DNA from: a virus
Strand: one strand, 5' to 3'
Length of the DNA: 30,056 bases
UHGV virus genome: UHGV-0140083
Shown: positions 79-30,056 of the stretch, one piece after another
Position numbering within the stretch: position 1 is the stretch's first letter
Layout of the letters: every line of letters begins with the position of its first letter
The notes under the pieces: model-generated
Seen by the model: the letters and a program-made list of their open reading frames with translations, nothing else
Told to the model about the DNA's origin: nothing
Databases searched by the model: none
Program-made: the position numbers and the translations under genes

Positions 79-91
79 AGTTAAGACGCTC
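79..91. repeat. attL core (left copy of 13-bp direct repeat)
   Basis: agttaagacgctc is identical to 29909-29921; minus-strand reading gives ...gag cgt ctt aac taa, a remnant of the rplS C-terminus ERLN plus a TAA stop. Confidence 0.8.
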
Positions 92-154
92 CTATTAACA
101 CCCCACAGCGAACAAACACTTACCATATAAAACAACTAGTTAAAGTAATTTTTA

Positions 155-172
155 ATGCAGTGAATTGCAGTG
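155..172. promoter_or_regulatory. Tandem direct repeats in the attP arm, candidate integrase arm-type binding sites
   Basis: tgcagtg at 156-162 and again at 166-172, separated by aat, lying between the att core and the int stop codon. Confidence 0.3.
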
Positions 173-1222
173 TTATGCAACCTCTGCCGCCACATTGTCG
201 CCAACATACAGCGATAACGGATTGAGGGTTACAGCTTGTTCAAGGTGGTCAGGAGCAAAGTGCGCATACTTCATTGTTTCTCGAATATTGGCATGTCCGA
301 GAATTTTCTGCAGCACCAGTATATTCCCTCCGTTCATCATAAAATGCGCACCAAAAGTATGACGCAAAACGTGCGTCTTCTGCCCTTCCGTCAATTCAAT
401 ATTCGTTAGTTTGAGCATCTTTTTAAACTCCTGATAGCAGGGTTTAAACATTCTGCCTTGACGTACGGACAACTCGTCGTACAGCCATTTAGGAATAGGA
501 ACTGTGCGATTCTTCTTACCTTTGGTTTTGGTGAACGTTAGTTTATATGGGGAAAGTTGAGGTCGGGTCAATCTCTCCGCTTCCCCCCATCGAGCGCCGG
601 TTGCAAGGCACACCTTAACAATCATGGTGAGGTCTTCTTTGCCGTATTGCTCGCAGGCTCGAAACAGCTCCGGGAGCTGAGACAAAGTTAGCCAGGACAT
701 TTCTTTCTCAGCTTCTTTGAATACTCGGATCCCATCAAGTGGATTGGGTAGGCTCCACTCCCCTAACCGGCGGAGCTCATTAAACACAGCTTCTAGGTAT
801 TGTTGTTCGCGATTGACGGTTATAGGTTTGGCGATCCATTTCGAGGGGTCTTTATGATAACCATTGTCTATTTCACCACGTAATCGACGGTCACGATAAT
901 GAGCCCAGTCTTTCGCGGTAAGGCGAGATGCAATCGGGTCGCCAAGTCCATTACATACGATTTGAAGCTTTGCAAACCTCGACTTACTGGCGACTAACGC
1001 TTGACCGTGCAAATTGTGCCAAAGCTGAATAATCTCGCTTAAGCGTCGGCGGTCTTCTTTCTTGCCGAGCCACGGCTTATCTTCACTCTCGCTTTTGGTA
1101 AATGCTTCAAATGCCTCGGCCTCACCTTTGGTATTGAACTGCCGACGTATACGCCGCCCTTCTCGACCATTTGGATAGAGTTCACACAACCATTTTCCAC
1201 TTTTTTGTTTACTTACAGTCAT
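173..1222 (-). CDS. int: Tyrosine recombinase / phage integrase
   Basis: 349-aa ORF; C-terminal segment (..ATGARWGE.., ..VLRHTFGAHFMMNGG..LQKILGHANIRETMKYAHF..) is typical of the tyrosine recombinase catalytic domain; position next to attL as in P2. Confidence 0.9.
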   Translation of the reverse strand: MTVSKQKSGKWLCELYPNGREGRRIRRQFNTKGEAEAFEAFTKSESEDKPWLGKKEDRRRLSEIIQLWHNLHGQALVASKSRFAKLQIVCNGLGDPIASRLTAKDWAHYRDRRLRGEIDNGYHKDPSKWIAKPITVNREQQYLEAVFNELRRLGEWSLPNPLDGIRVFKEAEKEMSWLTLSQLPELFRACEQYGKEDLTMIVKVCLATGARWGEAERLTRPQLSPYKLTFTKTKGKKNRTVPIPKWLYDELSVRQGRMFKPCYQEFKKMLKLTNIELTEGQKTHVLRHTFGAHFMMNGGNILVLQKILGHANIRETMKYAHFAPDHLEQAVTLNPLSLYVGDNVAAEVA

Positions 1223-1246
1223 TGCGATACCGAGGCTAAAAGAAAA

Positions 1247-1585
1247 TTAATTACAAAGGGCTGTAGCGGCATCAATCACCGGTGAAATTGAAATTTTAAC
1301 GCCGTCATACTCAGGGTCATCCTTCCATACGTCATCTAAGTTAGACCCCTCCAGCTTTCCTGATTTAACAGCATCTACCGCCATGCCATTCAGAGGATAT
1401 CTATCATCAGTTTTGATGTCATACACAAAAGCATAAACACGGTTAACACATGATACCTTTGCCTTTTCAAAGGTTAGAGGCCACTTGTCACCATATGCAG
1501 CGCCGTCTATCTCTTTAAACTTCTCAGCGGCTATGGCTGAGGAAGAAAGTGCAATGCAGACTATCGCAAATATAAACTTTTTCAT
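1247..1585 (-). CDS. Small secreted protein of unknown function (signal peptide; candidate lysogenic-conversion moron)
   Basis: 112-aa ORF with N-terminal signal peptide MKKFIFAIVCIALSSSAIAA and two Cys; strong SD (aaggag on minus strand) just upstream of the ATG at 1585; AT-rich compared with the surrounding phage genes. Confidence 0.7.
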   Translation of the reverse strand: MKKFIFAIVCIALSSSAIAAEKFKEIDGAAYGDKWPLTFEKAKVSCVNRVYAFVYDIKTDDRYPLNGMAVDAVKSGKLEGSNLDDVWKDDPEYDGVKISISPVIDAATALCN

Positions 1586-1594
1586 TACTGCTCC

Positions 1595-2440
1595 TTAAAC
1601 ATGCTTTTCCAAAGTAAAAATAACCGCACCTGATGGTGTGATATCTGAAATATTACATTCAAACTCAGCAGACTTATTTGATAACCTGACCTTTCCGCCT
1701 GGCAACCTAATTACGTCAAAAACATCGAGTGCGCCATCAATACCAATAAGCCAGCGACCATTTCCTATCTTCGAGTTAGAACTATCAACAAGCCAAGATG
1801 TGCTCACACCATCAATAAACACTAAATCATCAGTATTTGATGGAACCATAGATATATCAGGAGTCCAGCGTCCGATATCTTTGAGTTCGCCAGCCTCGAG
1901 GCGGCACTTTCTAATCGTTAAAGCATTTGCCGGTTCACCATCATTACTGTTACGCATCTGGCCTTTTCCGGTTGATAACCATTCTAACGATACGCCAGTA
2001 TCAAGGGCGCAAGTGACAACCACGTCACCGGGGAAAAAATCGCGTCTAACCCAAGTGCTTATAGTGCCGGAAGATATACCTAATAAATCTCCAAGCTCTT
2101 TTTGCAGAGTAAAACCATACGCATCGAGAATCCGACGCAGAACCGCCCTCCCTCCATTTGCCATGATTTCATCATAGAGTTGCTTACCTTTAAGCTTAGT
2201 TTTCACCACTTCAAATCTTGCATTTGCAAGCTCACCATTAATTAGCCATCGCAGGTCAGCTCCAGTATCAAGAGCACACTCAACGAAAACGTTGCTAGGG
2301 ATTACGTTTCTAGCAAGCCAGCTACTCACGTTGTTTGCATGTATGCCAAGCTTTTCGGCTAGTTCCTTTTGCTGCTTAAAGCCGTATGCAGAAAGGACAC
2401 GTTCCAATGCGGCAGACGCATTAACATCATTTTTAGACAT
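1595..2440 (-). CDS. cI: CI-type immunity repressor with two tandem N-terminal HTH domains
   Basis: Start chosen at the internal Met (MSKNDVNASAALERVL..., ATG at 2440-2438) rather than the ORF-track start at 2629. Two paralogous segments (ERVLSAYGFKQQKELAEKLGI...SSWL...ALDTGADLRWL and RRILDAYGFTLQKELGDLLGI...STWV...ALDTGVSLEWL) resemble the phage CI-repressor N-terminal domain; divergent from the lytic operon. Confidence 0.75.
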   Translation of the reverse strand: MSKNDVNASAALERVLSAYGFKQQKELAEKLGIHANNVSSWLARNVIPSNVFVECALDTGADLRWLINGELANARFEVVKTKLKGKQLYDEIMANGGRAVLRRILDAYGFTLQKELGDLLGISSGTISTWVRRDFFPGDVVVTCALDTGVSLEWLSTGKGQMRNSNDGEPANALTIRKCRLEAGELKDIGRWTPDISMVPSNTDDLVFIDGVSTSWLVDSSNSKIGNGRWLIGIDGALDVFDVIRLPGGKVRLSNKSAEFECNISDITPSGAVIFTLEKHV

Positions 2441-29468: not shown

Positions 29469-29540
29469 AAAAGCAAACCAAAACTTGCAAATGCAATTTT
29501 GAAGTTTATTATTCCCTCAGATACGCCAGCAGGGGAAATA

Positions 29541-29762
29541 ATTATGATGCACTGCCCGTTATGCCAAAACGCCGCACATGCTCGCACTAGCCGGTACCTT
29601 AGCACCGAAACAAAAGAACGTTATCACCAGTGCCAGAACATAAATTGCGGATGTACATTTATCACTTTTGAGACGCTATCAAGATTCATTGTGAAACCGG
29701 GTACTGTTGATCCTGCTCCGCCACACCCCATCAGAAACCAACAACAGCAACTTTGGCTTTGA
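29541..29762 (+). CDS. ogr: Late-gene transcriptional activator, zinc finger (P2 Ogr / 186 B family)
   Basis: About 73 aa from ATG 29541; MMHCPLCQNAAHARTSRYLSTETKERYHQCQNINCGCTFITFE... closely resembles P2 Ogr including the C-x2-C ... C-x4-C zinc site; SD gggga upstream. Confidence 0.85.
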   Translation: MMMHCPLCQNAAHARTSRYLSTETKERYHQCQNINCGCTFITFETLSRFIVKPGTVDPAPPHPIRNQQQQLWL

Positions 29763-29786
29763 ACCTGCTTCGGCAGGTTTTTTTAT
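29762..29786 (+). terminator. Rho-independent terminator of ogr
   Basis: Perfect stem aacctgc-ttcg-gcaggtt followed by tttttta. Confidence 0.7.
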
Positions 29787-29837
29787 ATCTGTCGCCATCA
29801 CTCCAACCTCTGCCGCCAATTTGCCGCCACCACCAAT

Positions 29838-29866
29838 AAAAAAGGGGTTAGCAATTCGCTAACCCC
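29838..29866 (-). terminator. Phage-supplied rho-independent terminator for the reconstituted rplS
   Basis: Perfect 9-bp stem ggggttagc-aattc-gctaacccc preceded on the plus strand by aaaaaa (29838-29843), giving a U-run after the hairpin on the minus-strand rplS transcript. Confidence 0.6.
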
Positions 29867-29906
29867 TTGTTTCATAACACGCTTTGGATGTAGCGCGAAT
29901 ACGTTA

Positions 29907-30056
29907 TCAGTTAAGACGCTCTTTGATACGAGCAGCCTTACCAGTACGCTCACGCAGGTAGTACAGTTTAGCTTTACGAACAGCACCACGACGTTTGACA
30001 GAAATGCTGTCAACTACCGGAGAGTGAGTCTGGAAGACACGCTCAACGCCTTCGCC
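29907..30056 (-). CDS. rplS: 50S ribosomal protein L19, C-terminal part (partial, continues beyond the window)
   Basis: Minus-strand translation of 30056..29907 gives [49 protein letters not shown] then a stop, the conserved L19 C-terminus; the TGA stop at 29909-29907 is partly phage-derived. Confidence 0.9.
29909..29921. repeat. attR core (right copy of 13-bp direct repeat)
   Basis: agttaagacgctc identical to 79-91; encodes the last four codons (ERLN) of rplS on the minus strand. Confidence 0.8.

Follow-up and report, generated by a model that had tools for sequence, protein, structure and literature searches.

A PSP3-type prophage at the 3' end of rplS: attachment cores, arm sites and a phage-borne rplS tail

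The prophage and its gene content

The window, i.e., the whole stretch of 30,056 nucleotides that was analysed, holds a prophage flanked on both sides by host DNA of the yfiB-rplS region. The principal features are as follows.

1..78, minus strand: host yfiB-rplS DNA, 100% identical to the empty site; displaced native rplS 3' UTR and terminator, now downstream of int
92..29908, strand not applicable: prophage, 29,817 bp between cores, identified by phage-record coverage and Pfam
173..1222, minus strand: tyrosine integrase (int), 349 aa, Pfam Int_N and Phage_integrase
2554..2925, plus strand: first early gene, 123 aa, phrog_3554 with a weak phrog_575 match; equals PSP3 orf30
29544..29762, plus strand: ogr, late-gene activator and last phage gene before attP, Pfam Ogr_Delta (E = 1.8e-20)
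29761..29787, plus strand: ogr intrinsic terminator, from terminator scan and fold
29907..30056, minus strand: 3' part of rplS, the last 49 L19 codons and stop, from translation and RefSeq lysogen annotation; the gene leaves the window

Ten sequenced phage records, Escherichia phages Midge and vB_EcoM-613R3 among them, cover 82-84% at 87-96% identity (nucleotide comparison of positions 92-25000). Pfam domains were found for Int, CI, CII/CP76, gpA, tail fibre and Ogr. They include the 186-type lysogeny module (Phage_CI_repr, Phage_CI_C and Phage_CP76) and a Phage_GPA replication protein together with an Ogr_Delta activator adjoining attP, which mark an Eganvirus or 186-type phage; nucleotide similarity and a gene order shared with sequenced members likewise place the prophage in Eganvirus. 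An identical lysogen in RefSeq has tape measure, tail protein, gpD and Ogr annotated beside rplS. The integrase shares 98%, 91%, and 60% identity with those of SW9, PSP3, and Fels-2, respectively, and the catalytic residues R, K, HxxR, H, and Y are present on inspection of its translation (motifs ARWGE, KGKKNR, HVLRH, LGH, and KYAH). For the first early gene, phrog_575 ("Cox-like excisionase and repressor") is a weak hit (E = 8e-5); the gene likely encodes a Cox/Apl-type excisionase and switch protein. The cargo ORFs had no convincing match in PADLOC, Pfam or NCBIfam, and no match to Rfam was found anywhere in the window.

We are confident that this is a complete PSP3/186-type P2-like prophage (Eganvirus, Peduoviridae) that its tyrosine integrase has inserted at the natural attB of its clade, within the final 12-13 bases of rplS. 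As the window by itself cannot demonstrate viability, the prophage might instead be defective or cryptic, no longer able to excise, and its att anatomy a fossil. We consider this decidedly unlikely, given that each long ORF that a PSP3-type genome should have is open, that both att junctions are intact, arm sites included, and that coverage by phages such as Midge and vB_EcoM-613R3 reaches 96% identity. The complete prophage is predicted to be inducible and to excise.

Attachment cores and the rebuilt end of rplS

The two junctions comprise the following features.

77..79, minus strand: displaced native rplS stop codon TAA, read from sequence
79..91, strand not applicable: attL core, 13 bp; its minus strand GAGCGTCTTAACT holds the L19 codons E-R-L-N and the first base of the stop
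29869..29906, minus strand: phage-borne surrogate rplS 3' UTR with a back-up in-frame stop TAA (29906-29904), by homology to native rplS tails
29907..29909, minus strand: new rplS stop TGA, T from the core and GA from the phage, read from sequence
29909..29921, strand not applicable: attR core, 13 bp, exact repeat

Exact copies of the 13-bp repeat AGTTAAGACGCTC stand at 79-91 and 29909-29921, and no third copy occurs in the window even with one mismatch allowed. On the minus strand attL reads GAG CGT CTT AAC TAA, with the stop at 79-77, while attR ends in TGA, of which the T is core position 29909 and the GA (29908-29907) is phage DNA. The earlier note, made from the letters alone, had placed the repeat at these positions and had read ERLN followed by TGA at attR and TAA at attL, all of which proved right. 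It had also proposed a comparison with uninterrupted related genomes: attB rebuilt from the outer flanks matches the uninterrupted yfiB/rplS site of E. coli, core included, with 100% identity, and among 5426 complete E. coli genomes the site is intact in 5341 and split in 85. This attR is present in 68 and this attL in 48 of the 5426. Conversely, free phages contain, without interruption, the attP that the inner flanks form when joined, at 93.5% (SW9/SI22), 88% (PSP3/SEN1), and 84% (RCIP0057) identity. Both junctions thus carry identical cores which overlap the 3' end of rplS, and the empty site equals the joined outer flanks. A 13-mer is short, and one could argue that the repeat is coincidental and that the prophage ends elsewhere. 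The probability of this is negligible and the proposal is already refuted, since two copies arose in 0 of 100 shuffles, the outer flanks reproduce the empty site and the inner flanks the attP of free phages, and alignments of non-lysogens to the attL side end exactly at position 91.

Strand exchange must take place inside the 13-bp identity GAGCGTCTTAACT, which spans four codons plus one base of the stop, its first; the exact crossover position is presumed to lie somewhere within this core. With a crossover there, everything downstream of it is replaced by the phage P arm. A contrasting description is that the insertion is intergenic (yfiB/yfiN-rplS) and the gene itself untouched. It has in its favour that the site has been tabulated as "yfiN-rplS" (PMC6449608) and that the L19 protein is unchanged. 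However, attP and attB have 13 bases in common, 12 of them coding and the last one opening the stop codon, and attB and attR first differ at the second base of that codon, which makes an intergenic insertion highly improbable. Because the shared 13 bp end at the first base of the stop, exchange downstream of rplS would be impossible in this phage. In PSP3 and SW9 the shared stretch is 17 bp (TCTTAGTTAAGACGCTC), 4 bp longer, and there the exchange could in principle fall partly in the stop and 3' UTR.

The L19 product is unchanged after insertion into the gene end. Translation across attR ends in ...KERLN*, and a lysogen and a non-lysogen share one L19 accession, WP_000065253.1. In the annotated empty site yfiB and rplS are convergent and separated by 76 bp. 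These data, together with the junctions, attB and attP, support the proposal of the earlier note that rplS is rebuilt with a phage-provided stop and terminator and that the displaced original tail lies at attL. After integration the rpsP-rimM-trmD-rplS operon would still be closed by a strong terminator, which would also keep operon transcription from entering ogr and the tail genes antisense.

Predicted terminators at the two junctions

Two hairpins downstream of the rplS and int reading frames are candidate intrinsic terminators.

18..46, minus strand: native rplS intrinsic terminator, stem-loop 25-46 and U-tract 18-24, from scan and fold (z = -4.5)
29836..29868, minus strand: phage-borne intrinsic terminator, found by terminator scan on the minus strand only (fold z = -4.2)

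The phage hairpin has a perfect, G+C-rich 9-bp stem (29844-29852 with 29858-29866) extended by two A-U pairs, and is followed by TTTTTTAT on the minus strand. The hairpin at attL contains two G.U pairs on the minus strand, which would be C.A mismatches on the plus strand, and the equivalent hairpin of PSP3 likewise has a G.U pair that becomes a C.A mismatch. Both hairpins of the window score as terminators on the minus strand only. Scan and fold are thus in agreement with a perfect 9-bp terminator in phage DNA and a different one at 18-46, as had been read from the letters, and both are predicted to function.

In the lysogen, the phage hairpin would end the rplS operon. In the circular phage it lies just downstream of int, across the core, and would end int transcription instead. 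Integration would accordingly exchange the terminators of int and rplS, with rplS gaining the phage hairpin and int coming to lie before the native rplS terminator at attL. It is possible, if doubtful, that the hairpin serves the phage as int terminator and P-arm insulator, its service to rplS being an unselected by-product. The minus-strand order in the circular phage (int, core, hairpin) fits this proposal, as does the location of the arm sites between the phage hairpin and the convergent ogr terminator. On the other hand, the entire segment from stop to U-tract is homologous to bacterial rplS tails, which points to a copied host gene end; moreover, the phage and rplS roles are compatible and the sequence cannot tell them apart.

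Origin of the phage-borne tail

The phage tail matches the native rplS tails of Pectobacterium, Brenneria populi, and E. coli at 57/70, 55/72, and 46/63 positions, respectively, with z scores from 7.6 (E. coli) to 20.9 (Pectobacterium), i.e., one rplS tail is replaced by a homologous one. By these alignments, the phage arm is homologous to, but diverged from, the rplS 3' UTR and terminator, and it is nearer to the Pectobacterium/Brenneria version than to that of E. coli. The P arm would accordingly supply the stop codon(s), approximately 40 nt of 3' UTR, and an intrinsic terminator.

The Pectobacterium and Brenneria tails were taken as native from attL flanks with host synteny, rather than from uninterrupted sites, and a scan of plant-associated metagenomes yielded no uninterrupted site of the Pectobacterium/Brenneria type. 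That these tails might themselves be phage arms or tandem prophages was considered and rejected: Ogr and gpD are absent downstream and host genes are found instead, namely a yfiL-type DUF2799 gene and a LytTR regulator, and in Brenneria and Pantoea the flank also contains an aroF-type DAHP synthase. The Pantoea-type tail was recovered in plant-associated metagenomes at 36 attB, 29 attR, 18 attL, and 2 attP junctions, which were classed by host and phage protein markers. The junctions include both native-like and foreign tails, and at some attR junctions phage and native tail are near-identical.

Since phages of the clade carry tails of differing bacterial lineages, lysogeny would give the rplS operon a heterologous 3' UTR and terminator. 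It is conceivable, and in our estimation unlikely, that such a tail is not neutral, altering the operon mRNA, and that the end of the int mRNA depends on integration in a sib-like manner. If true, the mRNA stability or read-through of the essential, highly expressed rpsP-rimM-trmD-rplS operon could change, and the swapped terminators would act as a sib-like switch that sets the 3' end of the int mRNA by integration state.

Arm sites and other recombination elements

Candidate recombination elements occur on both sides of the core.

130..142, plus strand: candidate IHF site AAACAACTAGTTA, 12 of 13 positions matching WATCAANNNNTTR by inspection; block invariant in four phages
156..172, plus strand: two TGCAGTG repeats (156-162 and 166-172), 10 bp apart, between core and P' sites and abutting the int stop
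185..203, plus strand: P' arm, two direct 186-type sites by motif match, TGCCGCCA (185-192) and TGTCGCCA (196-203)
29790..29829, plus strand: P arm, three direct 186-type sites by motif match, TGTCGCCA (29790), TGCCGCCA (29811), and TGCCGCCA (29822)

The motif TG(C/T)CGCCA occurs in the arms five times in one orientation and has just 2 further copies in the 30 kb. The five repeats match the published consensus of 186-type Int arm sites, tgccGCCActt (PMC3448106), and are the predicted Int arm sites. A recombination complex would be expected to assemble on all of them, three on the P arm and two on the P' arm, about 100 bp from the core. Their positions are conserved in SW9, PSP3, and RCIP0057. 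On the P arm, where the sites lie between two convergent terminators, an attP alignment of four phages shows the motif columns conserved and the spacers variable; the P' sites overlap the last int codons, so that conservation there is confounded by coding. Two diverged relatives show the motif on a single arm, which is the P arm in L108 (80% Int identity) and the P' arm in L127.

The tandem TGCAGTG repeats had been suggested to be Int arm sites. The repeats themselves are real and recur in SW9 and RCIP0057 with single substitutions, but the role is probably a different one, as it is TG(C/T)CGCCA that fits the 186-type consensus (PMC3448106). Copies of TGCAGTG with one mismatch are not enriched in the window (102 found versus 105 expected). 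The repeats are possibly sites for an excision directionality factor. Behind the early promoter, the leader contains another CACTGCACTACA; since three phages agree over the entire leader, its conservation is little informative. The consensus for IHF binding is WATCAANNNNTTR, and roles for IHF at the candidate site and for an excisionase are presumed.

Use of the site across the clade

In 18 of the 20 closest Int relatives in other species (68-96% Int identity), int is followed by (A/G)GCG(T/C/G)CT(T/G/C)AACT(A/G)A. Past this site the flank encodes YfiB and DgcN in the Escherichia sp., Enterobacter, Yokenella, and Citrobacter loci, and a yfiL-type DUF2799 gene in Pectobacterium and Brenneria. 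The core co-varies, being AGTTCAGACGCTC in a Klebsiella phage and containing CTGAAC in Enterobacter lysogens, and no tRNA gene was found near int in 26 related loci. As far as these loci tell, the end of rplS is the standard, conserved attachment site of the PSP3 clade, and its use is a known integration strategy. A search for other prophages at rplS, as the earlier note had recommended, thus finds the site in use in other Enterobacterales species, while the site is not peculiar to this prophage: it is standard in the clade, and a PsP3-like Salmonella prophage has already been tabulated at "yfiN-rplS" (PMC6449608). The 186-type integrases are noted to favour tRNA genes, and for PsP3 no site is listed (PMC3448106).

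Our literature searches turned up no description of this att site at nucleotide level. The present analysis provides one at base level for the PSP3 clade, where the main comparative paper on P2-like integrases has a blank (PMC3448106) and a later genome paper gives "yfiN-rplS" alone (PMC6449608). It shows that a 186-type integrase lineage which usually targets tRNA genes carries the 3' end of its target in the same way when that target is a ribosomal protein gene, in many genera of Enterobacterales. It also explains why annotation pipelines report an intact rplS beside ogr, and it fixes the exact ends of the prophage in about 1.3-1.6% of complete E. coli genomes. The compact attB GAGCGTCTTAACT, within a conserved essential gene, could serve integration vectors. 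The general understanding of phage integration is unchanged by this site.

Comparison with known systems

The architecture is alike in PSP3, SEN1, SW9, SI22, RCIP0057, Midge, and vB_EcoM-613R3, whose integrases are 91-99% identical, and the attP of these Eganvirus relatives has the core, arm sites, surrogate rplS tail, and hairpin seen here. The members differ in hairpin sequence, and PSP3 and SW9, which share 17 bp with attB (TCTTAGTTAAGACGCTC), would supply TAA, whereas the prophage described here has 13 bp in common with attB and ends rplS with TGA and then TAA. The PsP3-like phiSPU2 of Salmonella Pullorum occupies the same chromosomal locus (PMC6449608); there it is a table entry called intergenic, given without junction sequence and without analysis of stop or terminator.

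Streptococcal prophages were considered as a precedent and rejected. The GBSInt3 site is given as "rplS 3' end" (PMC7487436), as are those of Javan-type GBS prophages (PMC11357604), but in a table of the latter source the L19-adjacent GBS prophages target the tRNA-Arg gene beside rplS. The 12-bp att given there, ATGTCCCCTGCC, matches part of the GBSInt3 attL when reverse-complemented. As the target is this neighbouring tRNA-Arg gene, these prophages, whose integrases are unrelated, are no precedent for integration in the rplS reading frame.

Coliphage 186 and its relatives have the same integrase type and the same direct-repeat arm consensus, tgccGCCActt, on both sides of the core (PMC3448106). 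Their attP carries the 3' end of the target gene, the same logic as here, but the targets are tRNA genes rather than the 3' end of a ribosomal protein gene. Among protein-coding targets, e14 and phage 21 are reported to integrate in icd of E. coli (Hill, Gray and Brody, 1989; Campbell, 1992). There too, the 3' part of the gene is the target, the phage has a diverged homologous copy of the displaced end, and the gene stays functional. However, the exchange in icd involves approximately 50 codons and another type of integrase, whereas in rplS it involves four codons together with the stop, the 3' UTR, and the terminator.

The sib element of lambda is an RNA element that follows int only as long as the genome is not integrated, integration parting the two; sib-type retroregulation involves RNA processing across att, of the RNase III type, which destabilises int mRNA in that non-integrated state only. 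The order int, core, hairpin in the circular form of this phage has a sib-like geometry, and the likeness is one of geometry alone. Unlike sib, the element here is a plain intrinsic terminator, and int would gain another terminator upon integration.

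Identity and boundaries of the prophage

The 29.8-kb element inserted in the 3' end of E. coli rplS, the gene for ribosomal protein L19, is a complete P2-like prophage of the PSP3/186 type. Pfam searches returned matches to a tyrosine integrase (Int; 173–1222, minus strand), a CI repressor of the 186 type, CII/CP76, the replication protein gpA, a tail fibre and Ogr. Ten records of sequenced phages, each of them Eganvirus-like, cover 82–84% of positions 92–25000 at 87–96% identity. Int shares 98% identity with SW9, 91% with PSP3 and about 60% with Fels-2, and its translation includes the catalytic R, K, HxxR, H and Y motifs.

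The 13-mer AGTTAAGACGCTC is present in exactly two copies in the window, at 79–91 (attL core) and 29909–29921 (attR core). No third copy was found in the window even when one mismatch was allowed, and two copies were obtained in 0 of 100 shuffles. The direct repeat that the earlier note had reported at the junctions is therefore exact and has no other copy. On the minus strand, rplS at attR ends in GAG CGT CTT AAC TGA TAA, where the repeat closes with the T of TGA, and both the following GA and the second in-frame stop, TAA, are element DNA. At attL the minus strand reads GAG CGT CTT AAC TAA, so that the exchange of stop codons proposed from first inspection can be read directly in the sequence. 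A hairpin accompanies each junction:

25–46, U-tract 18–24, minus strand: left hairpin, fold z = -4.5
29844–29852 paired with 29858–29866, minus strand: right hairpin, perfect 9-bp stem, fold z = -4.2

The left hairpin includes two G.U pairs, which become C.A mismatches if the other strand is read, and the stem of the right hairpin is extended by two further A-U pairs followed by TTTTTTAT. In the terminator scan both score as intrinsic terminators on the minus strand only, i.e., in the direction of rplS; scan and fold thus bear out the two terminators that had been noticed by eye.

The empty site was rebuilt by joining window positions 1–91 to 29922–30056 (226 bp), and this attB matches the uninterrupted site of many E. 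coli chromosomes at 100% identity. There, yfiB and rplS are convergent and 76 bp apart, and position 1 of the window is the first base past yfiB. The rplS site is intact in 5341 of 5426 complete E. coli genomes and split in two in 85. Within this set, at a coverage of at least 80%, the same attR junction was found in 68 genomes and the same attL junction in 48; because 85 sites are split, 17 to 37 of them must be occupied by relatives of greater divergence or by other elements. Non-lysogen matches to the left junction end exactly at position 91, and the L19 accession WP_000065253.1 is identical in one lysogen and one non-lysogen. The rebuilt attP (29700–29921 joined to 92–300) is contiguous in the free phages SW9 and SI22 (93.5% identity) and PSP3 and SEN1 (about 88%), as well as in the Klebsiella phage RCIP0057 (84%). 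A coincidental repeat, or an attB that did not match the core, had been the alternative to insertion at this point; since the attB, attP, non-lysogen and L19 comparisons all fit, the finding held.

PSP3 and SW9 have 17 bp in common with attB, TCTTAGTTAAGACGCTC, and would supply the stop TAA, whereas in the prophage of the window two substitutions cut the identity to 13 bp and change the stop to TGA, backed by TAA. The core variant of the Klebsiella phage is AGTTCAGACGCTC, and the corresponding sequence in Enterobacter lysogens is CTGAAC, which indicates that the phage core tracks the Leu codon of the host.

Homology of the phage arm to rplS tails

The phage segment at 29836–29906 (minus strand), bounded by the stop codon and the U-tract, can be aligned with the 3' flanks of native rplS genes. 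It is identical at 46 of 63 positions to the native tail of E. coli (z = 7.6), at 57 of 70 to that of Pectobacterium (z = 20.9), and at 55 of 72 to that of Brenneria populi (z = 17.1). For species other than E. coli, the native flank was taken as the host side of attL in their lysogens, and neither ogr nor gpD was found past these flanks. The Pectobacterium and Brenneria flanks contain a yfiL-type DUF2799 gene and a LytTR regulator, and an aroF-type DAHP synthase is present in those of Brenneria and Pantoea. All these genes are neighbours of the E. coli locus, and the Brenneria tail directly abuts the yfiL homologue. By this gene content, the Pectobacterium, Brenneria and Pantoea flanks are host DNA.

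In a metagenome scan for the Pantoea/Pectobacterium tail type, all tails recovered were Pantoea-like apart from a few others. The junctions were sorted into four classes by host and phage marker proteins:

Junction classes in the metagenome scan
attB, rplS and host: 36
attR, rplS and phage: 29
attL, P' arm and host: 18
attP, P' arm and phage: 2

Nearly all host-side tails have the GGGGTTGGC...GCCAGCCCC hairpin, and the GGGGTTAGC-type hairpin is absent from every host-side tail of the scan. Phage-side tails are of the GGGGTTGGC...GCCAGCCCC native type or of the GGGGTTAGC type, the latter being also the type of the window's tail and of the native Pectobacterium tail. Together, the alignments and the junction classes indicate that attP bears a surrogate rplS tail. 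This tail is near-identical to the native one in some hosts and heterologous in E. coli, where only 13 bp of identity are left.

In two Pectobacterium loci (L012 and L014, about 4150–5460), the native rplS hairpin is followed by TGTTGGCGGTAAAGCGATGG, a sequence similar to 186-type arm sites, and next by a gene for a 319-aa methyltransferase that Brenneria lacks at this position. This arrangement may have been left behind by an older phage arm at the same site.

Integrase arm sites and accessory motifs

The following motifs were located around the core and in the early region:

29790, 29811 and 29822: P arm sites (ogr side), TG(C/T)CGCCA
185 and 196: P' arm sites (int side), TG(C/T)CGCCA
156–172: TGCAGTG pair, 10 bp apart, between the core and the P' arm sites
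130–142: IHF-like sequence, by inspection only
2462–2553: sigma-70-like early promoter (TTTACA, 17 nt, TATATT) and its leader

The five TG(C/T)CGCCA copies on the arms are in a single orientation and flank the core at a distance of about 100 bp on each side, and only two copies occur elsewhere in the 30 kb. The arm consensus of 186-type integrases, tgccGCCActt, forms direct repeats flanking the core on both sides (PMC3448106), and the TG(C/T)CGCCA repeats match it. Four phages share the motif columns of the non-coding P arm, with a variable intervening spacer. The earlier note had suggested the TGCAGTG repeats as possible Int arm sites; TG(C/T)CGCCA fits the published consensus instead, and these repeats are the likely arm sites. 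The TGCAGTG pair may represent candidate directionality-factor sites, the candidate factor being the product of the ORF at 2554–2925, which has a weak Cox-like match. The sole additional hint is one more copy of the motif in a wholly invariant leader. This leader, roughly 60 nt long and located after the early promoter, is the same in the prophage, PSP3 and RCIP0057, while the upstream operator region differs; it holds CACTGCACTACA (2516–2527), which is the TGCAGTG motif from beside attP in reverse complement.

Two viral contigs have a contiguous attP. The first (L108; Int 80% identical) has the P arm, with its hairpin and arm sites, in common with the window and differs from it in the 3' end of int and in the P' arm; in the second (L127; Int 74% identical) the arm motif is on the P' side only. 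These patterns suggest mosaic exchange of att arms among relatives.

Proposed integration mechanism

Int would bind the arm sites and the core, and strand exchange would take place within GAGCGTCTTAACT. Because 12 of the 13 core bases are coding, the exchange by this phage most likely occurs in the reading frame rather than in the intergenic region. The rplS gene would then run on into phage DNA, which would complete it with two stop-codon bases, a short UTR and a terminator. The phage terminator would end the ribosomal operon transcript and block antisense transcription of ogr and the tail genes. On the minus strand of the circular phage the order is int, core and hairpin, and the same hairpin would be the int terminator before integration; afterwards int would read into the native rplS terminator at attL. 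Thus, int and rplS most likely swap terminators on integration. The PSP3 hairpin includes a G.U pair on the int/rplS strand that turns into a C.A mismatch on the opposite strand, consistent with use of the former.

Accessory genes

Three further loci were recorded:

8430–9976, plus strand: two overlapping ORFs (274 and 241 aa), 37–41% G+C
1247–1585, minus strand: DUF2511 gene, between int and cI
7017–7250, plus strand: DinI-like gene (phrog_189), downstream of the replication gene

The overlapping ORFs, whose G+C content compares with about 55% in the phage structural genes, immediately precede the portal gene, where P2 has its old/tin cargo slot. Their PHROGs matches are limited to families of unknown function (phrog_13337 and phrog_8999), Pfam and NCBIfam gave no match, and PADLOC returned only a marginal ZorB/MotB-like match (E value 0.002). 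They could constitute an uncharacterised defence or moron cassette. The DUF2511 gene is also present in PSP3, SW9 and RCIP0057. Like the DinI-like gene, it is an accessory gene that may be expressed in a lysogen.

Distribution and relation to known attachment sites

An rplS-type core lies about 60–100 nt past int in 18 of the 20 closest Int relatives of other species (68–96% identity). The genera are Escherichia, Enterobacter, Yokenella, Citrobacter, Kluyvera, Atlantibacter, Pectobacterium, Franconibacter, Brenneria, Kosakonia, Pantoea, Chimaeribacter and Symbiopectobacterium. Rahnella relatives, with about 60% Int identity, use another site. Loci from Rahnella (L025–L027), Phytobacter (L013) and Pantoea astica (L016), with Int 60–79% identical, have a different junction without the rplS core, so that the switch in target specificity falls within this range of divergence. 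In Enterobacter, Yokenella and Citrobacter lysogens (L006–L009), yfiB is about 2 kb past the rplS terminator, compared with about 0.2 kb in Escherichia (L005), and thus roughly 1.9 kb of extra DNA lies between rplS and yfiB.

PMC3448106 gives no site for PsP3 and describes a tendency of 186-type integrases toward tRNA genes; a PsP3-like prophage has been tabulated at 'yfiN-rplS' (PMC6449608). A streptococcal site described as the rplS 3' end was considered as the same target and rejected, as it appears to be a tRNA-Arg gene beside rplS. No nucleotide-level account of the rplS att site was found in the literature searched. Only the tail homology and the terminator exchange are mildly new. Carriage of the target gene's 3' end in attP is a classical principle, which applies to tRNA genes and also to icd, the target of e14 and phage 21. 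At rplS, a known phage group occupies its ordinary attachment site and follows a known strategy.
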